From contig CAIMKX010000009.1 of the NCBI GenBank assembly GCA_903842025.1, forward strand, positions 1 to 56,517: a DNA stretch of 56,517 bases, in the 5' to 3' direction. Of this stretch, positions 7,596 through 56,517 are shown in pieces. Source of the stretch: an uncultured bacterium. Its GTDB lineage: Bacteria; Patescibacteriota; Minisyncoccia; Phycocordibacterales; PALSA-1337. Numbering within the stretch: position 1 is the first letter of the stretch; each line of letters begins with the position of its first letter. The notes below the pieces were generated by a model. It was not told the origin of the DNA. It saw nothing but the letters and a program-made list of their open reading frames with translations, and searched no databases. Position numbers and translations under genes: made by a program.

Positions 7596-9554
7596 CTAAT
7601 TGCCAGTGACTATCTCATACCCCTGCATGAAAGAAGGATCCGTGCTGAACCTGGTGGTCAGAGCGCCTTGCTGACTGCTGAGCGATGTGCCGGTAAAGCT
7701 ATCGGTCGCCGACAAGGAAGCTGGATTGACCAGAGTCGGAGATTGGCCGGTCTGGGTGATGCTCGGAAAAAAGGAGATCTGGAAAGCAACCTCCCGACGC
7801 TTGGAGGACTTGAGGGTATAGGCGGAAACGTTTCCGACATTCCAGGTCACCAGACCGCTGTTCTGGTCATAGCTCACGTCTTCGGAAGCGGGACTGACGG
7901 AATTCAACCATTTGACGTAAGGCGGCAAAGTCGCCGTCACGACAGCCCCGCCGACGGCGCTCGAGGCATTGTCGACGTCCCAGATCACCGTGTAAGTCGT
8001 AGCTTGATCGACTCTGGGCGGTATCGGACCGCTGTTGGTGAACGGACCGCTAGTATGGACTAGGCGTCCGGACAAAGCGACGTTGGAGGAGATCTTGATG
8101 TTCCTGGCCACGGCCGCCGTAACGCTCTGCGAGACGTTGGTCTCCTGCGTCCGGTTGCCGGAGACGCTAGCGACCATGGAGACGACCGGATTGACGATGG
8201 TATTCGCCGACGTGCCGTTGTCTCGCGGAACTATCGAGAAAGTCACCGCGCCCCCTTCCCCGGCCGAAACCGAGGCGAACTCAGAATTGGTCTGTCGGCT
8301 CCAGGTGATGGTGTTGTTGGCAGAATCAAAATAGCCGCTGTCGGGCGTGACCGAGGCCCGATCGTAGGCCGTGCCGGAAAGTTTGACGGAAATCTGCATA
8401 TTGGAGACTGAAACCGGCAGATTGTTGAGCCAGGAAATGATGATTCTTTGGCTCTGGCCAAATTGGCCGATGTGATCACTGGCGGTCTGATCGCTGTCAA
8501 CGGCGATGCTCAATGAAATGAACGGTTTCTGAATGATGATATCCTGCTCAATCGAGGTAAATTGCGTACCTATGACTTTCGGATTGTCAGAGCTCTTAGT
8601 CCCCACGGCAAAATGAAAGGCCCGATTGTCGCTGTCTTCGCCTGTCAAAGAGCCGTGGATCGTGATGGTCTTTTGTCCGCCAGCCGGCAGATCGCCGATG
8701 CTCCAGGTTGCGTTGTCGCCGACGGACGGAGCCGACGAAGAGATGAATTTGTAACCGAAAGGAAAATCTCCTTTGAGCAGGACATTTTTGAGGATCTGCT
8801 GGGAATTGGACTTGAGGCTGACTTTCAGGTCAAATTCCTGGCCTGAGGCGATCTCCTTGTAGGTCGAAACGGCCAAGCTCACCGGCGCGGAGCCGAGAAG
8901 AATGTCATAGGATTTGCTCTTGGTGAAGACTGCAGTCGATCCTTTGACGTTGTAGGTCATGGAGACGACGATCTGTTTCTGGAGATTTTCCTCGCCGTAA
9001 ATGATGGCGGAGACGGTGTCCTTCACAGACTGACCGGCGGTCATATTGCCGATGAATTTGTGGTAGGTTTTCAAAGGTTGGCCGGGGTCGGCGGAGTCGA
9101 TCGAGCCGGCCGGAAAGGAAACTGTGAGATCAGCGAGCTGAAGCTCAATGTTGTTCTTGTTGGTGGCAACGATATCAAAAGAAACCGGTGTCCCCCCGGC
9201 CACCGAGACTGGTCCGCTGATCTGGATGCTGATATTGTCTCCGGAAATGATGTTGGAACCATTCAGGAAAAGATAGGCGCCGAAACCGAGAGCGGCCAAG
9301 CAAAAGATGGCCGAGACAATAAATAATTTTGTGAAAAAAGACATTTTGTGGTGCTCTTGGTATTGCTCGTTGAGGTCAAATCCTGGCTTTGACTCCAATA
9401 CGGGCAATCTATCCCACTCAGTTTTCAATTCACTTCCCTGTCCTGTTTCTGACTGAAGCTTGCGACGAGTGCGCACATCTGGGGCCGTACGCGAGTAGAG
9501 CGATTTCTTGAGCTCATCAATGTAGGAATTGTCTTCAGAAAGAGGCACGCACAT
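7596..9554 (-). CDS. membrane-anchored protein with repeated Ig/CARDB-like beta domains
   Basis: 652 aa. Cytoplasmic N-terminus, single TM (FFTKLFIVSAIFCLAALGFGAYLF), then Ser/Thr/Val-rich beta-repeat ectodomain. Family assignment is tentative. Confidence 0.55.
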   Translation of the reverse strand: MCVPLSEDNSYIDELKKSLYSRTAPDVRTRRKLQSETGQGSELKTEWDRLPVLESKPGFDLNEQYQEHHKMSFFTKLFIVSAIFCLAALGFGAYLFLNGSNIISGDNISIQISGPVSVAGGTPVSFDIVATNKNNIELQLADLTVSFPAGSIDSADPGQPLKTYHKFIGNMTAGQSVKDTVSAIIYGEENLQKQIVVSMTYNVKGSTAVFTKSKSYDILLGSAPVSLAVSTYKEIASGQEFDLKVSLKSNSQQILKNVLLKGDFPFGYKFISSSAPSVGDNATWSIGDLPAGGQKTITIHGSLTGEDSDNRAFHFAVGTKSSDNPKVIGTQFTSIEQDIIIQKPFISLSIAVDSDQTASDHIGQFGQSQRIIISWLNNLPVSVSNMQISVKLSGTAYDRASVTPDSGYFDSANNTITWSRQTNSEFASVSAGEGGAVTFSIVPRDNGTSANTIVNPVVSMVASVSGNRTQETNVSQSVTAAVARNIKISSNVALSGRLVHTSGPFTNSGPIPPRVDQATTYTVIWDVDNASSAVGGAVVTATLPPYVKWLNSVSPASEDVSYDQNSGLVTWNVGNVSAYTLKSSKRREVAFQISFFPSITQTGQSPTLVNPASLSATDSFTGTSLSSQQGALTTRFSTDPSFMQGYEIVTGN

Positions 9555-43341: not shown

Positions 43342-44466
43342 CTACTTCATCTGCAGAGTATTGGGAATACCATCCTTAATCCTGACAAGAGCCTTACGAT
43401 ATTGACCATAATCTAGTATATGCTCATGATGTAACCTACCAATAAGCAAGCCGGGATGAATATTTAGTTCTAGACTAACAGATTTTATCGTCATCGCATC
43501 AACATTCGCGCGACGGAGATCTTTCACAACATCATCAAACCCAAAAGCGTTTGATGCAAAATCATTAGCCTCATTTTCTTCTTTCTCTGTTCCTGTATCA
43601 TTGATATCATCAGAGAAAACCCTATTAGGATGTTTAAGTACGTGACCAATCTCGTGCAGAAGCGTGAAATAAAAATTGTCTATTCGATCATACCGCAAAG
43701 ACATGATGATTACTGGCTCATTTGGTGTAATCCAGGTGACCGCGCCATCTACGCGCGTCTTAAAAAAGTGGGGCAAAAATATAACTCGAACACCAATATG
43801 ACCCAACTTAGTAATAATTTCCTTAATGCCATCATTATTTTGTGAATACTGTTTAATTTCAAAAGCGAATTTCTCTAGCGCGGTTGAATCATATTTCCCA
43901 ACCCCTTTTATTTTTTCAGCCTCTTTTTTTCCTAGTAACACCCACGCTTTTAGATAATTCGAAACTATATCTCCAGTCTTTGAAGTTCGGAAATTTGCTG
44001 TACAAACATCTTTTCTGAATTGATCCAAATTAGACATGTTGAACAACTCCAAGACTGCTTTACAGAGCTCACTGGTATTCTTCATTCTTGGCGGTAAATA
44101 TTTGCGTCGAATCAATTCCGGCACAGGAAAAAGCGAGTATAGTTCAGACCGCTTACTTACCTCACTCTCTTTAAATTTTGATTTATCCTTAAGAAGATAT
44201 AGGTCATATTCGGATTGCATGCCGAGCCAGAGATCCGCAGATGTTCCTAGCGCAGCCGCAATAACCCGGGCCGATTCGGGAGTAATCGCTCTCTTCCCAT
44301 TTATAATCTCATTAACCGTTCTGGCAGGCCGGCCTATGATTTCTGAAAATTCTGACTGAGTCAAACCACGAGCCTCAAGCTCGTCCTGCAAAATTTCTCC
44401 GGGATGAGCAACCAAGAAAGGAGTCTTATTCTTTTTTTCTTCTGAATTAATCATGATTTTATTCAT
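43342..44466 (-). CDS. higA: HigA-type XRE antitoxin fused to ImmA/IrrE (COG2856) zinc metallopeptidase domain
   Basis: N-terminal HPGEILQDELEARGLTQSEFSEIIGRPARTVNEIINGKRAITPESA (HigA HTH). C-terminal LLHEIGHVLKH (HExxH). Confidence 0.85.
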   Translation of the reverse strand: MNKIMINSEEKKNKTPFLVAHPGEILQDELEARGLTQSEFSEIIGRPARTVNEIINGKRAITPESARVIAAALGTSADLWLGMQSEYDLYLLKDKSKFKESEVSKRSELYSLFPVPELIRRKYLPPRMKNTSELCKAVLELFNMSNLDQFRKDVCTANFRTSKTGDIVSNYLKAWVLLGKKEAEKIKGVGKYDSTALEKFAFEIKQYSQNNDGIKEIITKLGHIGVRVIFLPHFFKTRVDGAVTWITPNEPVIIMSLRYDRIDNFYFTLLHEIGHVLKHPNRVFSDDINDTGTEKEENEANDFASNAFGFDDVVKDLRRANVDAMTIKSVSLELNIHPGLLIGRLHHEHILDYGQYRKALVRIKDGIPNTLQMK

Positions 44467-44752
44467 AATGATTGGAAATTTCCTCGATCACTATGGTTCT
44501 CTTACTTAATTCCTCGATTGAAAAGATGAGCCTGTATTGCTTGTTGAGCCTCAGCGAAAACTTATTCTCATGCCCCTTTAGTTTCTCAAAATGATTCCCC
44601 TTAATTTCACGTATATCACCCTCATGCTTCGCATTTTTAATGATTTGAATCTTCTTGAAAAACGCTCGGGCCACAAAATCGGGGTATTTACTAATCCCTT
44701 TTCCCTCGTAATACAAGCCCTCCAATTCTGAGCTTTGGAACCGAAAATTCAT
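44459..44752 (-). CDS. higB: HigB-family (RelE/ParE-fold) toxin
   Basis: 97 aa with ..KLKGHENKFSLRLNKQYRLIF motifs of the plasmid-maintenance killer (HigB) family. Overlaps higA by 8 nt. Confidence 0.8.
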   Translation of the reverse strand: MNFRFQSSELEGLYYEGKGISKYPDFVARAFFKKIQIIKNAKHEGDIREIKGNHFEKLKGHENKFSLRLNKQYRLIFSIEELSKRTIVIEEISNHYE

Positions 44753-44979: not shown

Positions 44980-45258
44980 ATGGCGTTTACAACCTATTTG
45001 ATTGAGCTCGTTTGGCTGAAGGCTTTCGTTGTCCCAGGCAGAGATTCAGGATTCTTGAGAAAGGACATATGTGGTGCATGGATCCGTCGAGACCAACATG
45101 GAAACCGAGATAGCGAGTACGGATGGGAAATTGATCACATCCGGGCAGTCGCAAACGGCGGGAGCGACTCGATCCTCAATCTCAGACCATTGCATTGGCA
45201 AAACAATGCTAGGAAATCTGACGGCAACCTAGTTTGCCCAGTTACCGCAGCTAGATAA
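44980..45258 (+). CDS. stand-alone HNH endonuclease
   Basis: Contains EIDHIRAVANGG...NLRPLHWQNNARK (H-N-H). Length 92 aa. Confidence 0.8.
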   Translation: MAFTTYLIELVWLKAFVVPGRDSGFLRKDICGAWIRRDQHGNRDSEYGWEIDHIRAVANGGSDSILNLRPLHWQNNARKSDGNLVCPVTAAR

Positions 45259-46617: not shown

Positions 46618-48216
46618 ATGGCTACGGATAAGGGTTTTGCCAAAATAGATGGCCATCGATGATAGCGGCGAGTACAAACTCGCGCCGGATGGCGTCTACA
46701 ACGATCCCGGCAAGAGCGCGACGAACATGAAGCGTCCCGGCTTGCAGGATATGCTTCTCCGCATTCAGGAAGACAAAACGATACGAGCTGTCTTCGTTCA
46801 GGACACCGACCGCTTGGCACGCAATACGACTGACCACCTGTGACTATCAAGGCTTTGCTCGCCAAGCACGAGGTGAAGCTCATCTCGGTATCGCAGCCTG
46901 GCCTCGAAGATATGCCCGAAGGCAACCTCATGGATACCATCATCGCCGGCTTCAATCAATTCCAGTCACAGCTGACTGCACGCAAGTCGACCAAGAGCAT
47001 GGCGCAGAAATTCAGCGAGGGTGGTTGGCCGACACATGCGCCCATCGGCTACCTCAATGTCGGCGAGAAGGATAACGAGAAAAAGCGAACAGTAATCGTC
47101 GACCCCATTCGAGGACCGCTCATCCAGGAAGCCTTCAAGCTCTATGCCACCGGCGACTACTCGGCCGTGGCCGTGCTCGACATCATCCATGAGAAAGGCT
47201 TTCGTGCCCGTAACGGCAAGCGCATCATGCTCGGCAAATTCGCGGACATGTTCAAAAATCATTTTTACTACGGCGAGATGCGCTGGCGCGGACTGATCGG
47301 TCCTGGGAAGCATCCATCACTCATAGACAAGGAGCTCTATGACCGTTGCCAAAGGATTAGCGAGGAACACAACCATCGAGCTTGCCGCCGGCATAAGCAC
47401 AACTTCATTCTCCGAGGATTTATCCGCTGTGCCATCTGTGGTTGCCGATACACGGCAGAGCATAACGTTCCGAAAAAGATTTCCTATTATCACTGCAATC
47501 GCTACAAGAATAATATTCCCGGAAACGTGAAATGCATGGACCAGTACGTCGAGATGAGCAATCTGGAAAATCAGGTCCAGGAGCAATTCAACCGCCTCCA
47601 ATTTACCGATGACTTCATCGCCAAGATCGAAGCTCGGCTCAAGATTGTCTATGAGGAAAAGAAAAGCTCGGTGACCGACGAGAAAAGCCGTATTATGCAG
47701 GCCAAGCTTTCCGTCGAGAGCAAGCTCGAACGCGCAGAACATAAATTAATCGACGGTGTCATAGATGACCAGTCATTCGAACGCCTCAAGAAAACGTATC
47801 GCGAACAGATAGAGGACTTCGAAAATCAGATCGCCAAGCTGGACCGCTCCAAGAACATCAAGGTAGACGTCATTCAACAGGTCCTCGCACTTACTCGGGA
47901 CATCGGGACCTCATATAGCAATGCCAAGCCGGAGTTGAAGCAACTCTACCTCGGACTTTCCTGGCATCATTTCTTGGCCAAGGAGAAAAAAATCGTCGAA
48001 GCGGTGAAATCGCCAATCGTCGTGGCTTTGGAAGAAGTCGGGGCGATCACTGATGCCGCCGGAGACGCCACGAAAACCGCCATTCCTAGCCCTATGTCAG
48101 GCATGGACTCGTCGGTTATAAATAATACCGTGAGGGGTCGCGTGGTAGACGTATTCAGAACCAGTATCTATGCTTCTCCTAGCCAAATCTTTACGGAATA
48201 CGCCACAACTAGGTAA
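46618..48216 (+). pseudogene. large serine recombinase, N-terminally decayed and frameshifted
   Basis: Resolvase-domain fragments occur in three frames (MATDKGFAKIDG / DDSGEY..YNDPGKSATNMKRPGLQDML..DRLARN / TIKALLAKHEVKLISVSQP). No catalytic-Ser region is found. These are followed by an intact recombinase domain, zinc ribbon (CAICGCRY..YYHC) and coiled-coil. Confidence 0.75.
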
Positions 48217-48365: not shown

Positions 48366-48800
48366 ATGAGTGAAAACTCCCTCGTCAATCTAATGCTCTC
48401 ACACCAAGTCACTTTTCCTTGGCGTTCTATGTCGAATTTTCAACATAGAACAGAAGTAAAAGTCACATCGAACAGAGTTGACGTTGTTTACTTTGAACAA
48501 CTAAATGCTTCTGGTATTGGTTTCATCGCAGCAGTCGAAGCTAAACTGCATGACTGGCGAAAGGCTATCCGACAAGCTCACAGAAATAAACTATTCGCAG
48601 ATAGAGTTTATGTTGCGATGCCAACCCAATATGCTTCAGCAGCCATTGAGAATATCTCTGTGTTTAGACAGGCGTCGATTGGATTAATTTTGGTAGATAA
48701 TGAACGTTCTCGGATTTATTACCACCCTCCAATGAATACGCAAAGGTCGTCAAAACACGTGATTAAAGTCAAACAAACCTTAGCTTCTCAGAATAATTAG
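48366..48800 (+). CDS. PD-(D/E)xK nuclease-fold-like hypothetical protein
   Basis: RVDVVYF...GFIAAVEAKLHDW gives a D-x19-E-A-K arrangement. Length 144 aa. Its end overlaps the convergent kinase gene by 4 nt. Confidence 0.45.
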   Translation: MSENSLVNLMLSHQVTFPWRSMSNFQHRTEVKVTSNRVDVVYFEQLNASGIGFIAAVEAKLHDWRKAIRQAHRNKLFADRVYVAMPTQYASAAIENISVFRQASIGLILVDNERSRIYYHPPMNTQRSSKHVIKVKQTLASQNN

Positions 48801-50662
48801 GAAAGGAACTTTAACCAAGTTCGAAGTAGTGGTGTTTCAATTGAGTATAGTTTTTCAAAACGCCTAGTTTCTCGTATCGCCATCATGACTCTGTGGTAGA
48901 GAGACTCCTTCCCCCCATTCTTTACAGAGGCAAGCTCGGCTGGTATAGATACAATGAAATGCTTTCTGCGATGAGAACGCTCCCATTTAGATAGCTTATT
49001 TCTCTTCATGAGCGTACTTGCACAGTGCGGGCAGTTGCACTGAGTACGTATTCTGCCAAGCATATTCGTTCGCAAGCCAATTATGTGGTCAGCCTTAATT
49101 ATCGACAAAAATATGCCTAAATACATTCCGTCTGGTTTCTGTGCAAATTTCGGTTTTACCCTCTTGCTCATTAATATTGGCAATTTAGGGTATGTTGTAG
49201 AAATCAAACCACTTACACCAGCCGTACTTAATGGTATAACCGACAAATCACCATCAAATAATACAAATCTGTTATTAACTACCCACGGTTCAATGAACTC
49301 TGCAATGGCCTTAAGTTGATCAGCGCTCAAAGTGGTTTTATTATTAGTTACGCATATTCGAAGAACTATTCCGTCAAGACCTTTTGCAGCATAAGCATTC
49401 TTGATTTCTGTAAGTTGTGGAGACAAGAGCAGCGACTCACATATAGCTATTACTCCTATAAGTGGCAATTCGTTAGCCATCTTTTTCTTCCAATCTCTTG
49501 CAATATCAATTGCTGCGATATTCTTACTAAGGTTATCTGTGGTTAGAGGAGCTTCAAACTCCGAGGCTGGTACACATAAACCTATTGTCCCTATGCTATG
49601 TTGATTAAAAAAAATATTATCGAGGTTTTGCTGTTCTGACCAAGGAACTTCCCAGAGCATATTCTGGGCATTTGTTTTTGCTGGCAAAGTTGGCATGACA
49701 TCAGTTATCCAGTATATTCCAGTGTTTCTACCTCCTTCATAGATGGTTTCAAGAACATTTGTGTGTTCGTTACCTCTACCTGGCTTGGTCTTTAAAAAAT
49801 ATCTAGGCATTTCAATTATCCTTGTATCATTACCAACCAAAAGAATTTTAGTTGCCCGAGAAGGAAGTGGTCGTCGTGCAGGTTCTTTGGATAACATCAC
49901 GTCAATTAAATTTGAAATAACTTCGTCAAAATTAGCCCTGAAGTGCCTGACGGGAGGCGGTAATTGCTGAAGAATATCTGTGGAGTTTTTAAAAAACTCA
50001 GAAATTTCTCTGCCTGTTACAGCACTATATAATACTGCACCCACTCCATACATATCAGTCAAAACAGTGAGCTGACTTAACCTCAATTCAGACGGGTCAA
50101 ATAGGTAAGTTAATACTTCAGGAGCAATAAATTTTCTGGCGGGATAAACCCTCTCGGTCTTCATCTTCTTCAAAAATTTTGCTGCTCCAAAATCAACCAA
50201 ATGATAATTCCCTTGAACATCAAAAATTATGTTGGCTGGTTTAATATCAAAATGAACGATACCCGCCTCCTCAAGTGTACTGACGCATTCAATAAGTGTG
50301 ACGGCCAATTTCTTGACCTCTTCTAAAGATAATTGCCCAACCTTCTTTATACGCTCTTCCAAATTAACACCATCAATAAAAGGCATTATAATAACATAAT
50401 GACCTTTGACCTGATCGATCCTAATTGGTTTCGGAATGAATGGTGAATCAATTTTTAGGAGGACATCGGCTTCCTGGTATGGTAGTTCTTGAGAATCATG
50501 AACTTCTTTTACTTTACAAAATAACTGTTGACCATCTGATGTTGTTACCTTAAACTTCTCTCCATCTTGCCCTTGTTGTATTGGATCGATAGAGACAATA
50601 GAACCACCTAACATTTCCTTCATGATTTTAATACCTTTAGTATCTGATGTATTTCTAGTCAT
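48797..50662 (-). CDS. Hanks-type Ser/Thr protein kinase fused to a TGT/DpdA-like CxCxxC TIM-barrel-like domain
   Basis: Kinase motifs: FCKVK (beta3 Lys), HFDIKPANI, VDFGAAK, IAPEV and DMYGVGAVLY. The C-terminal ~340 aa has an alternating beta/alpha pattern ending in CNCPHC-x17/21-H. Confidence 0.8.
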   Translation of the reverse strand: MTRNTSDTKGIKIMKEMLGGSIVSIDPIQQGQDGEKFKVTTSDGQQLFCKVKEVHDSQELPYQEADVLLKIDSPFIPKPIRIDQVKGHYVIIMPFIDGVNLEERIKKVGQLSLEEVKKLAVTLIECVSTLEEAGIVHFDIKPANIIFDVQGNYHLVDFGAAKFLKKMKTERVYPARKFIAPEVLTYLFDPSELRLSQLTVLTDMYGVGAVLYSAVTGREISEFFKNSTDILQQLPPPVRHFRANFDEVISNLIDVMLSKEPARRPLPSRATKILLVGNDTRIIEMPRYFLKTKPGRGNEHTNVLETIYEGGRNTGIYWITDVMPTLPAKTNAQNMLWEVPWSEQQNLDNIFFNQHSIGTIGLCVPASEFEAPLTTDNLSKNIAAIDIARDWKKKMANELPLIGVIAICESLLLSPQLTEIKNAYAAKGLDGIVLRICVTNNKTTLSADQLKAIAEFIEPWVVNNRFVLFDGDLSVIPLSTAGVSGLISTTYPKLPILMSKRVKPKFAQKPDGMYLGIFLSIIKADHIIGLRTNMLGRIRTQCNCPHCASTLMKRNKLSKWERSHRRKHFIVSIPAELASVKNGGKESLYHRVMMAIRETRRFEKLYSIETPLLRTWLKFLS

Positions 50663-50824
50663 TATTAACTACGCTAACTCAAACACAAAGGCATGTCAAC
50701 TATTATAATAGGTGATTTATTATCTGTACCAGATTCATAAATAAAAATATAAAGTGGTGGTTCCTTATATTAACTGTTACAAAAGTTAATCATCCAAAAT
50801 TCCTATATACAACAATACCTAAAT

Positions 50825-51031
50825 ATGTATGATCCATTCACAACATACATGGACTACCGCCGAAAAATACTTTCAATCCGAATGGAATACCTAAAGGGTA
50901 TTATTGACTTGGATACTGCAAAGGCTCGAATACAACCACTCCTCGATGAGATGAATATACGGGGTTTGGTAATCGCAAAGCAACACAGCAGAAAATTCAC
51001 GAAGTTAACCTTTGGCTACGTGATGAGGTGA
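50825..51031 (+). CDS. small hypothetical protein
   Basis: 68-aa ORF in the gap between the kinase gene and the RM operon. Flanked by a related ~25-bp direct repeat (50708-50735 / 51070-51098). Confidence 0.3.
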   Translation: MYDPFTTYMDYRRKILSIRMEYLKGIIDLDTAKARIQPLLDEMNIRGLVIAKQHSRKFTKLTFGYVMR

Positions 51032-51116
51032 GATATTACAGCTCTTCGTTGGTTAAAATAAACTTACACAATAATAAGTGATATTCAATCTGTATACTTT
51101 GTCGTCCAAGTCGTCT

Positions 51117-51611
51117 TTAACTCCAAATCTCACTTGTCCTAGGTTCAAATTGCTTTAGAATTTTTAAATATTCAACCTGTATATTCGACTCTACCCATTT
51201 AGGATACAGTTGACCAATCTCACCATTCTTCATGGAAACATCATTACACGGCTCGAAGAAAAAACCATCTGGTGATGCGACAAATAACCATGATGGATTC
51301 CAGATTTTCAAAGTCTGATCAACAATCTCCTTTATCTTCTTACTATCACGGCGAGTGCAAAACTTGACTTCGACTAGATATACTTCGGTTTTATCTTGAG
51401 ATATGAGCACAAAATCAGGTGCATTCCTGATATTTGCAATGACGGCTTTTATTTCCACCAGATGTTGATATTGGGCAAGCTCGGGTAGCGTATATTCGTA
51501 ACCAGATCTAAGAATAGTAAATCGTCCTGATTCACGAAACATTTGTTCAAAAATAGTTTCCGCAATTCTCCCCTTTATAAGTTCGCGAGTAAATTCAATA
51601 TTAGTCATCAA
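51117..51611 (-). CDS. small PD-(D/E)xK (Hjc/endonuclease-like) protein
   Basis: KGRIAE...PDFVLIS...VYLVEVKF follows the E...D...ExK order of restriction-endonuclease-like folds. Lies 6 nt downstream of the MmeI-like gene. Confidence 0.55.
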   Translation of the reverse strand: MMTNIEFTRELIKGRIAETIFEQMFRESGRFTILRSGYEYTLPELAQYQHLVEIKAVIANIRNAPDFVLISQDKTEVYLVEVKFCTRRDSKKIKEIVDQTLKIWNPSWLFVASPDGFFFEPCNDVSMKNGEIGQLYPKWVESNIQVEYLKILKQFEPRTSEIWS

Positions 51612-51616
51612 TTTTA

Positions 51617-54334
51617 TTATTGTTTACTTGATAATTTCTTATACAGATCAAACAGAAATTTAATGCGCATTTCATTATTTGTAAACCTCTTTCCGTAGCA
51701 CGCATCTACTGATTTATCTAGATCAGCATGAACTGTTACTAGCTCTGGGGGCATCGTTTTAGGATCATACAAATCAGCAAGAGAACTATTTGGAAACTGT
51801 TGCCGAACATCCAATACTTTTTGTGCGCAAGCTTCAACATCTTTCTTATGCTCATCAGATACACTTTCTGGCCAAGGAAAATTGTTATAAACCAGTGTAT
51901 TTGAATAGCGGTAATCACTTTTTAATCTACCACATACATATGATACCCAAGTCATGTGCATCAAGGACTGGAGAACGCCGAAGTCATATAGTGTAGCATC
52001 TAAAACTGCTAAACATGTGTCTCCAATGATTTTATCCTTGCCAAAAAAGCTCATTGGTATGTAGACCCTATTTTCTGAACTAACACGAGGAATAGCGACA
52101 TAGTTGCTTTCTGGTTGACGGATTTCCCCAAAAAGCGCTGGGTATTTTGCCAACACTTGTGTCTCCGTCCGAGAGCTTTCAGTGCGCAGTATCTTAACAT
52201 TTTCTATACGTTCCATAACTTTCGGAAGTGTCTGAATTATCTGTGGCTCAACATCCTTTAACCATAAACAATATCTCCTTTCACCATTTAGATATTCTTT
52301 TGCACTGATGATCTCCTTCATATATGGCAAAGCATCGGGTTCAACTTGTAAAAAATCATTCTTCTCTCTTTCCGTAAATAGAAAATTACCTCCGTCATTA
52401 GGCATATTTCCAAACGTTATCGCTGGCACTGAACATATTGGAGCCCGTCTATTTTCAACGAAAACATCCTCACCTGCTACAAGGTAAGCGTTTATGTGAT
52501 TGACCTCCTTCTCCTTCGGCTCGCTCCTAATTGTCTCGTATTCATACAGATATTTTCTCGGGGTATCAAAACATGCGAAACCGACTATTACACAGTATAC
52601 TGCAGCAACTCCTGGCGCATCATTATTCCATTTAAATGTTTCATGGGCAAAATGAATCGTTATTCCATACCTTTCTTTTAATCTTTTCCAAAGAATAGCA
52701 ACTTGCTCTCCTTGGCATATTGAATTTGTAGACACAAAAGCCGTCTTTATCGAAGTACCAGCCATATACCTAGCCGCCTTTTCATACCATGCGGTAACAA
52801 AGTCAAGATTGCCCGCACCTTTTATATTGTCGAATACGCTCAAGAATATTTCCTTTTGTTTGGGATCCATCAGGCGTGCACCTACGAATGGCGGATTTCC
52901 AAGAATGAATGAGAGCCTAGACTTCGGAATAATGCTTTCCCAATCTGTAGTCAGCGCATCAGCATTAATTATAGTCGCAGGCTCTCGAAGTGGGATGCGA
53001 GCATATATCTCACCAAACTTCTCCGACAGCAACTGATTCATTTGATGATCTACGAGATACATTGCCACGCGAGCTATGAGTGCCGGAAACTCCTCGATCT
53101 CAATACCATAAAATTGATTAACATTGATCATAGAAAGCTCATCTGCTCCAAATCCAAATATTCGTAGGCTAGACTCTTTGACTGAACGCTTTTTGCGTAA
53201 CACTTCGATCTCAAGTTTTCGTATCTCTCGATAAGCAACAACTAGAAAGTTCCCGCACCCACAAGCTGGATCTAGGAATTTAAGTGATGAAAGTTTTTTA
53301 TGGAAAATATCAAGTTTTTTAGGATCACGTTTGACTTGATCAAATTCAATGTAAAGCTCATCGAGGAAGAGTGGATGTATTAACTTCAGGATGTTTATCT
53401 CTGACGTATAATGCGCACCCAGATGACGGCGAGCTTCCTCATCCATAACACCTTGGAATAACGAGCCGAAAATTGATGCTGAGATCTTCGACCAATCAAA
53501 ACTTAAACATTTCATCAGTTTGAGATATGCGGTTGCGTCCAAAGATACTGGCGCTATTTGTTCAGCAAAAATACCGCCGTTAATATACTGGAACGTCATC
53601 AACTGTTCATCTAGATTCGTTTGTCTCTTTTCCTGAGGTGTATTTAGAATGTGGAATATTTGTAATAGATGAATACCGAGGTCAGATCCGTCCTTATTCA
53701 CCCTATTCTCTATGTAGCTTCGAAAATGGTCTTTCGGGAAAATACCTGTATCATCTGCGAAAAGACAAAATAGAATGCGAATCAAAAAGACTTCTAGATC
53801 ATGTCCACTATACCCAGTCTTCGCAATCTCATTATGAAAATCGGCCATCAATTTTGCTGCCTTAATACTTGCCTCTTCCTCTTTCTCATACACTTGAACA
53901 TGATACCCAGATATAAACCCGAAAAGATTTATATGCTTATGCAGGTCTTTAAGCAAAAATTCTTCGTGTGTATCTGTATCCAAATCATACACACGGATCT
54001 TTTCAAAATCAGAGACGATGACATACTGTGGAAGTTCTGGGTCTTTTAAGCCTGGAAAATAATCTTTGGCTTGATTAAATGCCCTATCTAGACTTTTTCC
54101 ACGAGTTTTGTGTTCAGCCAGCATTGTTCCTTTCCAAATCACATCGATATACCCTCTTCCACCGTCCAACTTTTTAACAGGATATTCAAACGTGGCAACT
54201 CGTCTCCTAGACACACCAAAAACATTAAAGAATCCATCCCAGAAACTCTTTGCTTCTGCATCTTCATTGTAATCACGTTCCCATTCATGAGAAAAGACTA
54301 CAGCTCTATTTCTAATTTCGTTAAGACTAATCAT
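51617..54334 (-). CDS. MmeI-family type IIL/IIG restriction endonuclease-N6-adenine methyltransferase
   Basis: N-terminal FW..FF.VFGVSRRRVATFE..GYIDVIWKGTMLAEHKTRGKSLD (D-x9-ExK nuclease). Also FLDPACGCGNFLV (motif I) and LGNPPFVG (motif IV). Length 905 aa. Confidence 0.9.
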   Translation of the reverse strand: MISLNEIRNRAVVFSHEWERDYNEDAEAKSFWDGFFNVFGVSRRRVATFEYPVKKLDGGRGYIDVIWKGTMLAEHKTRGKSLDRAFNQAKDYFPGLKDPELPQYVIVSDFEKIRVYDLDTDTHEEFLLKDLHKHINLFGFISGYHVQVYEKEEEASIKAAKLMADFHNEIAKTGYSGHDLEVFLIRILFCLFADDTGIFPKDHFRSYIENRVNKDGSDLGIHLLQIFHILNTPQEKRQTNLDEQLMTFQYINGGIFAEQIAPVSLDATAYLKLMKCLSFDWSKISASIFGSLFQGVMDEEARRHLGAHYTSEINILKLIHPLFLDELYIEFDQVKRDPKKLDIFHKKLSSLKFLDPACGCGNFLVVAYREIRKLEIEVLRKKRSVKESSLRIFGFGADELSMINVNQFYGIEIEEFPALIARVAMYLVDHQMNQLLSEKFGEIYARIPLREPATIINADALTTDWESIIPKSRLSFILGNPPFVGARLMDPKQKEIFLSVFDNIKGAGNLDFVTAWYEKAARYMAGTSIKTAFVSTNSICQGEQVAILWKRLKERYGITIHFAHETFKWNNDAPGVAAVYCVIVGFACFDTPRKYLYEYETIRSEPKEKEVNHINAYLVAGEDVFVENRRAPICSVPAITFGNMPNDGGNFLFTEREKNDFLQVEPDALPYMKEIISAKEYLNGERRYCLWLKDVEPQIIQTLPKVMERIENVKILRTESSRTETQVLAKYPALFGEIRQPESNYVAIPRVSSENRVYIPMSFFGKDKIIGDTCLAVLDATLYDFGVLQSLMHMTWVSYVCGRLKSDYRYSNTLVYNNFPWPESVSDEHKKDVEACAQKVLDVRQQFPNSSLADLYDPKTMPPELVTVHADLDKSVDACYGKRFTNNEMRIKFLFDLYKKLSSKQ

Positions 54335-54559: not shown

Positions 54560-55213
54560 TTAAGTCTCAAAAGTCATCCTTTTATAAATCTGTCTCGTGG
54601 TCTCGACATCCCTCATGCAGTAATCGCAAATCTCTTTAACCTTTCCTCGTTTGAAAAAGTCATAAACCTCGGAACCATCAATCCCATCTTTTGGTGTCGG
54701 TAATCCGAGAGCAAGAGCAATATGTTCAAGACCGACATTTTTCTGAAAACCCCATTTCGACCATTCGCACATAGTGTCAAAGATCGGAGAACTGCGATAC
54801 CGTGCGAAACTCAAATCTTTACTTGGCTTAATGTTTAAAACGATTGATCTCTGATACAGAAAAGTCAAATCAAAATTCATAATGTTATGGCCAATAAATA
54901 GGTCGCTTTTCTCGGTTATCAGCCAAAATTCCTGAAGGGTTTTGCTCTCGTCTTCTGGGTTGCAAATCACCTGTGTATTCTCGTCATTTATGGCATATGC
55001 TACGCAAAGAACCCTTCCAAAACCGCCATCAAAAGACGTCTTCAAAAAATAATCTTCAAACTTGTCGGCAATCTTACCTTCAATCTCAACTTCTTCAACC
55101 ACATCTTTCTTCCGAGATTTCTTCTCAAGCTGTCGCTTGAAAAGATACTCTAGTTTTGATTGACTATTTTCATCAGCGGGTAAAGTCTCAATATCTATAA
55201 ATAGTTTGTTCAT
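54560..55213 (-). CDS. DEDDy 3'-5' exonuclease (PolB-exonuclease-like, COG3298-type)
   Basis: FIDIETLP (ExoI), GHNIMNFDLTFL (ExoII) and DYCMRDVETT (ExoIII). Start set at MNKLFIDIE. Confidence 0.75.
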   Translation of the reverse strand: MNKLFIDIETLPADENSQSKLEYLFKRQLEKKSRKKDVVEEVEIEGKIADKFEDYFLKTSFDGGFGRVLCVAYAINDENTQVICNPEDESKTLQEFWLITEKSDLFIGHNIMNFDLTFLYQRSIVLNIKPSKDLSFARYRSSPIFDTMCEWSKWGFQKNVGLEHIALALGLPTPKDGIDGSEVYDFFKRGKVKEICDYCMRDVETTRQIYKRMTFET

Positions 55214-55229
55214 ATATATTATGTGAAAA

Positions 55230-56141
55230 CTAATAACAATCAACTCTTCCTGTACCGTTACCACCGGCATAAGTGCAATGTGTAGTCTGTTGATATTGTT
55301 GCGGTGCTGGAATTGCCCCCGTATTTATTGGAATCCCTATTTGCGATTGAAGACTTTGTATCTGTAAGTTAAGTTTTTCTATTTTCGCATTAGCTTCATT
55401 CGTCAAAATGCTTAACTGATTTTGGAATTGATTTGTCGCTGACCCGAAAGGATTTGGTGCACCAGCAAAAGAATTCCCTAGAGTCTGCTTATCGGCGTAA
55501 TATTTATTTTTTATATCGAGAATTTGTTGGTTAAGGGTATTGATCTGGGTTTGGATATCTTGGGTGGCAGATTGTTGGGAAGTTTGAATAACTGTTCCGC
55601 TCGGTATAGGTACACAAGACTTTTGGTCGTTGCTCGAAGTATATCCCGCCTTACACGAACAATTGTATGCCCCGTTGCTCATATATGACGATCCGTCCCA
55701 TGTAGCATTCATATCATCACAGATCTGATAACCAGTTTTCTGAGGTATTTCACAATATGCGTCACCAGTTTGTGGACAAATGAGGTTTTGTTTTGCGGGA
55801 CATTTATTCCAGTAAGTACCGTTACAAAGTGTACCCGTAGGTTGAGTCGGTTGCTTAACTTGAGGTTGCGCGAGCGGTGAAATTACAGCACCAGGATTCT
55901 TGCTGTTAACACTTTTAACTGGTATTCGTGCAGATGCAGTTGGACTTGCCTCTGAAGGCACGGACGTTGGTGATTGTTCGATAATCTTATTGGGTGGTGT
56001 AGGTGTGTTTACTATCTGTACTTTGGAACCGGTAGACATGAATGAAAAAATACTCCACGTTGTTGGATTCCACCATGATGCAAAAGTAATCGAAGGGACA
56101 GTGAATAATAAAATGGTAACTGCTAAAATAGGTTTTTTCAT
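55230..56141 (-). CDS. secreted Cys-rich / coiled-coil hypothetical protein
   Basis: Signal peptide MKKPILAVTILLFTVPSITFA. Eight or more Cys in the central region. Gln/Asn-rich coiled-coil C-terminal half. Confidence 0.55.
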   Translation of the reverse strand: MKKPILAVTILLFTVPSITFASWWNPTTWSIFSFMSTGSKVQIVNTPTPPNKIIEQSPTSVPSEASPTASARIPVKSVNSKNPGAVISPLAQPQVKQPTQPTGTLCNGTYWNKCPAKQNLICPQTGDAYCEIPQKTGYQICDDMNATWDGSSYMSNGAYNCSCKAGYTSSNDQKSCVPIPSGTVIQTSQQSATQDIQTQINTLNQQILDIKNKYYADKQTLGNSFAGAPNPFGSATNQFQNQLSILTNEANAKIEKLNLQIQSLQSQIGIPINTGAIPAPQQYQQTTHCTYAGGNGTGRVDCY

Positions 56142-56517
56142 GGGTATTGATTATCTAATAAATCAACAATACCCTAGTGTGAGATACACAAAACCCAACA
56201 CTAGGAGGCCTTGCGACCCATATACCGGTTTCCCGATATAACGTTGAACACGCCCTAATGCTGGGGTTAATGTGTTCAACGATTTTCGACCATACCTTAT
56301 GCAAATCACACAAGGGTTAGGTCTACGATATTCAGTTGTGTCTTCAGTGTACGACTTGGAACAGGTCTTGTCTACCGCAGTCTCCTCCCATACATAATGA
56401 GCCTCAAATAGTTCCACTGTCCCAGGGAAATGAGCTCAATTTCCCTTGAGCTGTGGATAACGGCATGATTGATGAATTATGAACATCATCATGAACGATT
56501 CTCACATAGTGAGCGTA

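Follow-up and report, generated by a model that had tools for sequence, protein, structure and literature searches.

In Dpd systems, DNA is reported to be modified by enzymes of the tRNA-guanine transglycosylase (TGT) superfamily (PMC10164549), and in type IV CBASS the TGT-family protein Cap10 has been remodelled away from tRNA for a protein partner (bioRxiv 10.1101/2025.04.06.647259). The KKP (kinase-kinase-phosphatase) systems of Pf prophages combine kinases that carry a nucleic-acid-binding C-terminal domain with a PP2C phosphatase, and confer phage defence via kinase activity (PMC11341870). Here we describe a locus in which a TGT-like fold, a Hanks-type Ser/Thr kinase and a PD-(D/E)xK-fold nuclease meet in two convergent genes, at 48366-50662 of contig CAIMKX010000009.1 (assembly GCA_903842025.1), a stretch of 56,517 nucleotides (nt) from an uncultured Patescibacteriota bacterium that is called the window throughout. 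The pair is a compact, rare fused form of a widespread unnamed module, a new combination of parts of known kinds, and we read it tentatively, with a confidence that stops a little short of even, as a conflict (defence-type) module of two genes that is complete in itself and is carried on a serine-recombinase island in decay. What speaks for this reading is the linkage of the pair in both directions, an intact kinase together with invariant nuclease residues, and a sporadic, mobile distribution.

The larger gene encodes a fusion protein whose N-terminal part is a protein kinase. Pfam Pkinase (PF00069) matches residues 30-270 at E 4.6e-30 and 105.3 bits, well above the curated cut-off of 31.7, and the translation holds a Gly-rich loop (GQDGEKF), the beta3 lysine K52 (FCKVK), the alphaC residue E64, H137-F-D139-IKPAN144, D157-FG, A180-PE and DMYGVG. 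The catalytic residues K52, D139, N144 and D157 are all intact, so that score and motifs together bear out the complete, non-RD (HFD) Hanks core that a first-pass annotation, made by a model from the sequence letters, had read here. When the full-length fusion was searched against PADLOC and NCBIfam, the matches were confined to this core; MAD6, PglW and PD-T4-6 were accordingly rejected as its identity, as their matches cover the kinase core only. Public gene calls disagree on the start codon and give 621, 608 or 605 residues.

Single-sequence and profile searches with the C-terminal part, residues 275-621, returned nothing significant from Pfam, PHROGs or PDB sequences, and the sub-threshold matches that surfaced in the family searches with this domain and with the 144-residue partner protein (Ribosomal_L32p at E 0.014, ribulose-5-phosphate epimerase at E 0.065, PP2A activator at E 0.084) were treated as chance. 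Among 1.84 billion representative proteins, scanned exhaustively with HMMER, there were only 13 relatives, seven of them near full length (611-643 residues) and all of these with the same kinase-plus-domain architecture. An AlphaFold 2 (AF2) model built on the 13-sequence alignment, with a predicted local distance difference test score (pLDDT) of 90 and a predicted template-modelling (TM) score of 0.90, consists of eight beta/alpha units followed by a helical subdomain. Foldseek placed 140 PDB structures against it at E <= 1e-3, and the best 50 of the 140 were all bacterial TGT, at E 1.2e-6 to 9e-6 and TM scores of 0.48-0.57, aligned across the whole domain; matches in a viral library were weaker, one of them being an annotated phage TGT. 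The predicted structure has, in other words, the (beta/alpha)8 barrel and C-terminal subdomain of the TGT superfamily.

Sequence profiles tell a different story. Pfam TGT matched none of the 13 members at E values up to 10, no TGT stood among the matches of the domain in PDB sequence and profile searches, and hhalign comparisons of the fused-domain family with E. coli Tgt alone, and with a nine-sequence TGT/DpdA alignment drawn from plasmid and phage records, gave insignificant probabilities of 1-3%. The likeness to TGT or DpdA suggested by the first-pass annotation thus stood at the level of the fold, where a Foldseek search of an AlphaFold model had been proposed as the check, and did not extend to sequence profiles. 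Despite their non-significant probability, the three best local hhalign alignments, taken for colinearity and not as evidence of homology, are colinear with TGT and make structural sense: the helix and strand around Q80 fall on 'EIQ..LGSDIVM', 'LDGIVLR...VLFDGD' on 'fDGyAiGG...yLMGVG', and, at equally non-significant probability, CNCPHC on the CDCYTC of TGT. The CNCPHC motif lies at 49022-49039, inside the interval 49019-49042 first given for it, and its three cysteines (C542, C544 and C547; C268, C270 and C273 in domain numbering) are invariant, together with H568 (H294), in 13/13 kinase-fused relatives. Between the two histidines proposed as the fourth ligand, that 21 residues past the last cysteine is conserved and that at +17 is variable. 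A TGT zinc site has CxCxxC with a histidine about 22-26 residues on, a pattern to which CNCPHC and its histidine at +21 answer as a putative metal site; three remoter kinase fusions (683-693 residues) also retain CxCxxC...(N)H.

Loss of the transglycosylase chemistry is suggested by the barrel itself. In TGT the catalytic Asp nucleophile is D280 and the base-binding aspartates are D102 and D156 (Z. mobilis numbering). From strand order and the local hhalign alignments, the D280 equivalent appears to be Ser or Thr among window-clade members, with Gly in its place across most of the wider family, and the D156 equivalent appears to be Pro or Ala; aligned in this way the domain would lack the catalytic aspartate, in keeping with the earlier remark that the canonical TGT aspartates are not evident. 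The fold assignment is a tool result and the residue mapping an inference, and from the two we conclude that the domain, as modelled, is a TGT-like fold with a zinc motif and without the transglycosylase catalytic residues.

The partner gene encodes a protein of 144 residues that had been noted for its D..EAK motif, and it gave nothing above noise in Pfam, NCBIfam, PADLOC, PHROGs or PDB sequences. A profile search nevertheless gathered 82 relatives, and an AF2 model from 48 sequences (pLDDT 94.5) shows a helix, three strands, a helix and a strand in that order. Its sole significant PDB match in Foldseek is 3DNX (E 3e-6, full-length TM score 0.67), a member of DUF1052, itself assigned to the PD-(D/E)XK superfamily (PMC3424549). 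The two share the D...ExK...Q pattern as well as the fold, whereas their sequence identity is 16%, Pfam gives no match for the 144-residue protein, and the genomic partners of DUF1052 are others (PMC3424549). All 83 non-redundant homologues share D39, E58, K60, W64, Q70 and G106, and E3 and E30 come close to invariance. The residues of catalytic type are E3, E30, D39, E58-x-K60 and Q70; the conserved D39/E58/K60/Q70 pattern is, judged from sequence, the signature of an active nuclease site. With its predicted restriction-endonuclease-like core (alpha-beta-beta-beta-alpha-beta) and its conserved D...ExK, the protein joins the PD-(D/E)xK group. Most relatives are about 220 residues long and carry a winged-helix domain that separates the 'PD' strand from the 'ExK' strand, an insert that the window nuclease is without. 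S128, a C-terminal serine, was considered as a phospho-acceptor and dropped, not being conserved in the wider family. One 143-residue nuclease, P0018 (locus L005, 10001-10432), bears the Joint Genome Institute (JGI) name 'DNA-binding helix-hairpin-helix protein with protein kinase domain' and has no kinase domain; this label probably stems from the kinase gene that overlaps its own.

How much of the neighbourhood belongs with these two genes? The first-pass annotation had joined four into one candidate module, namely the fusion, the 144-residue protein, a 164-residue protein with a PD-(D/E)xK motif and an MmeI-type enzyme. All four open reading frames are there, at the coordinates and on the strands it gave, as we confirmed by reading the window, and so are the convergence of the nuclease and fusion genes, which have 4 nt in common (48797-48800), and the 455 nt that separate the fusion gene from the 164-residue gene. 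In every fusion-relative locus of the window clade the nuclease gene converges on the fusion and overlaps its 3′ end, by 4 nt in the window, 12 in L001/L005, 9 in L002 (where a seeming split between kinase and TGT is a run of N in the scaffold), 7 in L003 and 6 in L008, which makes the 144-residue protein a true conserved partner of the fusion. The MmeI-type enzyme and the 164-residue gene, in contrast, adjoin the pair only in near-identical contigs from the same population, and are missing from every divergent pair locus, including L001/L005, L003 (where a metagenome-assembled genome, MAG, of Angelobacter has a relaxase/TrwB/Dam element) and L008 (from a MAG of Chloracidobacterium). The comparison therefore supports a two-gene pair and not a four-gene module: the kinase-TGT-like fusion does recur beside a small PD-(D/E)xK gene, as had been hoped of the larger unit, and the type IIL enzyme does not. 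In L001/L005 a type ISP enzyme stands 2.6 kb from the module.

The MmeI-type enzyme is an ordinary member of its family, unrelated to the kinase module. It holds MmeI_N, MmeI_hel, MmeI_Mtase, MmeI_TRD and MmeI_C in canonical order (E 1e-23 to 1e-88), matches PADLOC REase_MTase_IIG over its full length at 1173 bits and shows no notable difference from described members, so that its first identification as a type IIL enzyme was sound. The family of the 164-residue protein is unusually well conserved and comprises 357 clusters, of which the 120 listed show 57-95% identity; its named homologues are all from Patescibacteria, none has a Pfam domain, and the close ones adjoin a trypsin-like protease or a Pfam-less protein of 815 residues, not MmeI or the kinase. 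Further homologues of the 164-residue protein stand in contexts that are often mobile or defence-like, among them a serine recombinase with Phage_CRI, and RelB/YafQ with a Hypoth_Ymh gene nearby.

The wider family was gathered by scanning one genome per GTDB species, 185,579 species representatives in all, with the nuclease alignment as bait. The nuclease locus is carried by 201 of them, a sporadic distribution of about 0.1%, and 80 of the 201 loci were retrieved; the architecture counts that follow cover 79 species-representative loci. A hidden Markov model made from the kinase-fused domains alone found an adjoining open reading frame of 380-430 residues in 26 distant loci (E 7e-23 to 7.5e-4), without exception beside the nuclease, and after profile iteration a TGT-like gene adjoined the nuclease in 77/80 loci; among the 79 species-representative loci the number is 75. 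Clustering of all neighbouring reading frames by BLAST, independently of any profile, gave four recurrent families, three of which are Pkinase, PP2C_2 and PIN_3 in Pfam. A separate kinase is present in 58/79 loci, together with the TGT-like gene and PP2C in 31 and with the TGT-like gene and no PP2C in 27; eight loci pair the TGT-like gene with PIN and have no kinase, five carry the kinase::TGT-like fusion, and the other eight show further architectures, most of them cut by contig ends. By these counts the invariant core consists of the nuclease and the TGT-fold protein, a kinase joins it more often than any other third part does, and fusion is rare. The annotation that first drew attention to the locus had not seen that the fusion is the minority form, the kinase being usually separate and PP2C or PIN frequent extras. 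In the common layout PP2C and then the nuclease on one strand converge on the kinase and then the TGT-like gene on the other, so that the kinase gene lies directly upstream of the TGT-like gene in most relatives and PP2C often upstream of the nuclease. Relative to this, the window form has its kinase and TGT-like parts fused, its winged-helix insert lost and its phosphatase missing.

The PIN group (L079, L052, L065, L084, L089, L091, L047 and L064, most at about 8270-8730) comes from Patescibacteria and Pseudomonadales, places a PIN_3 protein of 150 residues between the nuclease and the TGT-like gene with no kinase, and has in most cases a large serine recombinase within 2-5 kb; its proteins are the closest standalone relatives of the window TGT-like domain. 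A second group of kinase::TGT-like fusions, of 665-693 residues, occurs in Alkaliphilus (L050, 5767-7764), in Saccharibacteria (L026, 8309-10369) and as P0014-P0016. These are remoter from the window protein than the window clade is (17-21% identity, E 3e-5 to 7e-4), retain CxCxxC in L050 and P0014-P0016 and not in L026, and have the nuclease co-directional in L050 and convergent in L026; given this second, remote group, the fusion may have arisen more than once. Across the wider family the zinc motif is retained in about one third (31-32/91) and lost in the Bacteroidota and Aeromonas forms. Among the barrel residues Q80 is conserved in 82/91, D156 in 66/91 and G157 in 85/91, and 74/91 sequences have the Asp of a DPxxY motif; the N-terminal third of the barrel that holds DPxxY aligns to the window clade in a manner unstable between MAFFT runs, and no equivalence is claimed there. 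The family is present in Bacteroidota, Proteobacteria, Verrucomicrobiota, Acidobacteriota, Bacillota, Patescibacteria and some archaea. Neither core protein has a match in Pfam, NCBIfam (June 2026 release) or PADLOC, and RefSeq lists them as 'hypothetical protein' beside 'serine/threonine-protein kinase' on Bacillus mycoides and Polaromonas plasmids.

Set against the described systems, the module resembles several and coincides with none. The TGT superfamily (bacterial TGT, DpdA and archaeal TGT) shares with the window domain the (beta/alpha)8 barrel and the C-terminal CxCxxC...H subdomain, and differs from it in sequence profile, with no significant similarity, and, as far as the local alignments show, in having the Asp nucleophile and the base-binding Asp; conversely, the window domain is fused to or paired with a kinase and a nuclease, with no deazapurine pathway genes present. 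The fusion has no PADLOC or NCBIfam match to the Dpd 7-deazaguanine DNA modification system, and Dpd genes (DpdB/DpdC and the helicase/nuclease genes dpdD-K) do not recur beside the 79 loci. Cap10 is a parallel in that a TGT fold has been recruited there into an anti-phage system, yet it keeps the catalytic Asp and has lost the zinc site, the opposite of the pattern seen here, and its partners, the QueC-like Cap9 and a CD-NTase, are not present at the window module, which has no PADLOC Cap10 match. KKP and the single-kinase defences Stk2 and PD-T4-6 are likewise Hanks kinases on mobile elements, with a C-terminal domain that binds nucleic acid or a ligand and defence exerted through phosphorylation; PD-T4-6 models of PADLOC match the fusion's kinase domain, and the PP2C of KKP has its parallel in the module's relatives and not in the window. 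KKP consists of PP2C followed by two kinases with CSD and FHA domains, whereas the window module has one kinase, no CSD or FHA domain and no PP2C, and a core of nuclease and TGT-fold protein. MAD6 of the methylation-associated defence system (MADS, MAD1-8) and PglW of BREX type 2 (which also has PglX, PglZ, BrxC, BrxD and BrxHI) give the best PADLOC and NCBIfam matches to the kinase domain, and again to the kinase core only: MAD6 scores 70 bits where 460 are required and MAD2 13.5 against 720, PglW (a kinase of about 1400 residues) 50 against 990, and the PglX models at most 19 against 400-900. PglZ and BrxC are not among the called neighbours of the window module, nor are other MADS or BREX components present with it. 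The analogy once drawn with the PglW/PglX pairing falls with these scores, while the statement that the locus is no named defence system is upheld by the lack of a PADLOC, NCBIfam or Pfam match. A literature search found no description of the combination of kinase, PP2C, TGT-like protein and restriction endonuclease, although a recent description is possible.

The surroundings are those of a mobile island in decay. The large serine recombinase gene next to the pair is a pseudogene, with a frameshift at about 46840 where two reading frames, aligned to residues 42-91 and 91-492 of intact homologues, meet; by tblastn about 41 N-terminal residues are missing, a part that includes the region of the catalytic serine. 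The same module recurs in L010/L011 with the recombinase shortened further and a different left flank of ice-binding and sortase genes. A role for the recombinase as third component was rejected: between loci the recombinases near the module are only 23-30% identical, where the module proteins reach 39-61%, they change place and direction from one locus to the next, and the copy in the window is a pseudogene. Such divergence indicates that they mark different mobile islands and are not a co-evolving third gene. Direct or inverted att-like repeats flanking the island were sought, and gave short chance matches only. Pfam annotation of 124 flanking genes from about 34 loci returned integrases four times, ResIII four, SWI2_SNF2 three, and HSDR_N, Resolvase and Relaxase two each, and many of the 124 are housekeeping genes. 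In one metagenomic locus the module is flanked by a Dcm/Z1/DUF4420 cluster on one side and by a MazE/PIN pair on the other; elsewhere serine recombinases, a relaxase, integrases, type I, III and ISP restriction genes and toxin-antitoxin pairs lie near it, and some copies are plasmid-borne. The context is variable, tinged with mobile-element and defence genes, and not exclusively made of them.

Table 1. Features of the window locus, with positions counted from the first letter of the window
Feature	Coordinates	Strand	Basis or remark
PD-(D/E)xK-fold nuclease, 144 residues	48366..48800	+	conserved partner gene; AF2 model, Foldseek, conservation
Ser/Thr kinase and TGT-fold domain fusion, 621 residues	48797..50662	-	translation, Pfam, fold model
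Hanks-type kinase domain, residues 30-270 of fusion	49853..50575	-	Pfam Pkinase, motifs
TGT-fold (beta/alpha)8 barrel with C-terminal helical Zn subdomain, residues ~286-621 of fusion	48800..49807	-	AF2, Foldseek
CNCPHC, putative zinc ligands C542, C544, C547 of fusion	49022..49039	-	conservation
H568 of fusion, putative fourth zinc ligand	48959-48961	-	conservation
Large serine recombinase pseudogene; context, outside module	46691..48216	+	tblastn; Pfam Recombinase, Zn_ribbon_recom
164-residue PD-(D/E)xK-motif protein (PDF...EVK), downstream of MmeI; outside module	51117..51611	-	
MmeI-family type IIL/IIG restriction-modification enzyme, 905 residues; adjacent independent system	51617..54334	-	

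Several further features of the window were recorded along the way. A 68-residue open reading frame at 50825-51031 (+), inside the 455-nt gap, matches phrog_10302 (unknown function, E 6e-5) and is annotated as a gene in some public assemblies. At the left edge of the island (43342-44752, -), a HigB-like toxin of 97 residues lies upstream of a 370-residue protein with HTH_3 and Peptidase_M78 domains (ImmA/IrrE-like), the two forming a toxin-antitoxin-like pair that is followed by an HNH protein (44980-45258) and a DUF5659 protein. Just past the MmeI gene, 54560-55270 (-) encodes a PolB-exonuclease-like, RNase H-fold 3′-5′ exonuclease (DNA_pol_B_exo2, E 1.4e-16) and 55230-56141 a secreted Cys-rich (cEGF-like) protein, and 56205-56323 (-) matches the LOOT RNA over its full length (RF03000; 79.8 bits, gathering score 46.4), the sole Rfam match in the window. 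Outside the window, a 307-residue 'tRNA-guanine transglycosylase' on a Picosynechococcus plasmid (L103, NZ_CP014001, 1303-2226) used for the TGT reference alignment stands between two DEAD/DEAH helicases, an ensemble that looks like a plasmid-borne dpd-type cluster.

Considering these observations together, a phosphorylation-controlled nuclease that acts as a conflict or defence system is the most economical reading of the pair and the most likely one. The TGT-fold protein lies always beside or fused to the kinase of its locus, which suggests that it is the kinase's sensor domain. With its nucleophilic and base-binding Asp lost and its zinc subdomain kept, it would bind a ligand (nucleobase, nucleic acid or protein) that turns up during infection or when a mobile element enters; the bound ligand would activate the attached non-RD kinase, phosphorylation would free or activate the partner nuclease, which would then cut DNA, and PP2C, where present, would reset the system. 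KKP phage defence and Cap10 of type IV CBASS offer, by analogy, precedents that would support this logic. Every mechanistic step here is inferred; what the analysis shows is conserved gene linkage, the folds and the conservation of active-site residues.

Several points weigh against a conflict or defence role. The enrichment of defence and mobile-element genes is modest, at about 15-20 of the 124 neighbours, and a search of 50,697 phage records turned up no member of the family, so the link to phage is indirect. The defence role of all members is predicted from gene linkage and analogy, and we hold it with slightly less than even assurance. The link to TGT depends on one predicted structure, the profile comparisons with TGT and DpdA being non-significant, and the loss of the catalytic Asp is read from weak local alignments and secondary-structure order. 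Moreover, the nearly universal DPxxY Asp of the wider family, for which the window clade offers no secure counterpart, may itself be catalytic.

If the barrel were an active enzyme, the locus might work like a restriction-modification system, in which the TGT-fold enzyme exchanges or removes a DNA base, marking self or damaging foreign DNA, and the PD-(D/E)xK partner restricts by that mark, with kinase and phosphatase only tuning the outcome. Convergent overlapping gene pairs are typical of restriction-modification systems, and the window pair is so arranged; the TGT-like protein and the nuclease persist as the invariant core whether or not a kinase is there, the polar barrel residues (Q80, D156-G157 and the DPxxY Asp) are conserved in the proportions given above, and TGT-superfamily enzymes are reported to modify DNA in Dpd systems (PMC10164549). 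We nonetheless consider this unlikely, given that the nucleophile position appears to be occupied by Ser or Thr in the window clade and by Gly in most of the family, that neither queC/D/E/F-type nor other base-biosynthesis genes recur in the neighbourhood, that about two thirds of the family are without the zinc site, and that no member is matched by Pfam TGT. A little less likely still is a kinase toxin-antitoxin or addiction module that stabilises the island, in which the kinase acts as toxin (compare KKP and HipA) and is neutralised by the small protein, or in relatives by PP2C, and any phage defence is a by-product of growth arrest. The position of the module beside serine recombinases and on plasmids, a convergent 3′ overlap that suggests tightly balanced expression, the presence of PP2C in at least 31/79 relatives and the part of PP2C in KKP as antitoxin of toxic kinases (PMC11341870) would fit such a scheme, but a complete, invariant nuclease site would be superfluous in a mere antitoxin, the eight loci without a kinase still hold the TGT-like protein and the nuclease, and the window variant does without the phosphatase.

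The winged-helix insert of most small partners, some of which JGI annotates as MarR-type regulators, and the many housekeeping neighbours would suit a non-defence regulatory cassette, where Ser/Thr phosphorylation controls a DNA-binding protein of winged-helix and restriction-endonuclease fold, and the TIM barrel has an enzymatic part in metabolism or sensing. This we regard as improbable, seeing that the distribution is sporadic, at the low frequency noted above, that the module occurs on plasmids and near recombinases, restriction-modification genes and toxin-antitoxin pairs, that the catalytic residues of the nuclease are invariant, and that the window variant has no winged helix. Far down the scale comes the four-gene defence module first proposed, with its kinase fusion, two small nucleases and MmeI-type enzyme in the manner of PglW/PglX, to which we give next to no credence. 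In its favour are the adjacency of the four genes, seen in the window and again in near-identical contigs from the one population, and the type ISP enzyme near the module in L001/L005; comparative data already contradict it, in that the MmeI and 164-residue genes are missing from L001/L005, L003 and L008 and, chance restriction-modification neighbours apart, from the 79 GTDB loci, homologues of the 164-residue protein occur without MmeI, and PglW, PglX and MAD6 score far under their cut-offs.

The conflict-module reading, carried to the family as a whole, leads to a bolder proposal, in which we place slightly less confidence than in the reading of the pair itself: that the core of a TGT-fold protein without transglycosylase chemistry and a PD-(D/E)xK nuclease defines a widespread, unnamed prokaryotic immune system, with a Ser/Thr kinase/PP2C switch as its usual control and a PIN protein now and then in place of the kinase, in which the TGT-fold domain might be a receptor for a nucleobase signal (e.g., 7-deazaguanine-modified phage DNA or the free base) or a Cap10-like handler of nucleobase and protein, and of which the window would be the minimal fused form. 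As members occur in cultured carriers (Aeromonas piscicola, A. sobria, Sphingobacterium puteale, and the Bacillus mycoides and Polaromonas plasmids), the hypothesis is directly testable. Should it be an immune system, its two to four genes would make up a new family, one that extends across many phyla. It would also mean a second independent recruitment of the TGT fold of the queuosine pathway to defence, after Dpd and type IV CBASS, coupled in this case to eukaryote-like Ser/Thr phosphorylation, and the fused variant of the window is direct genetic evidence for the kinase and the TGT-fold protein acting as one unit.

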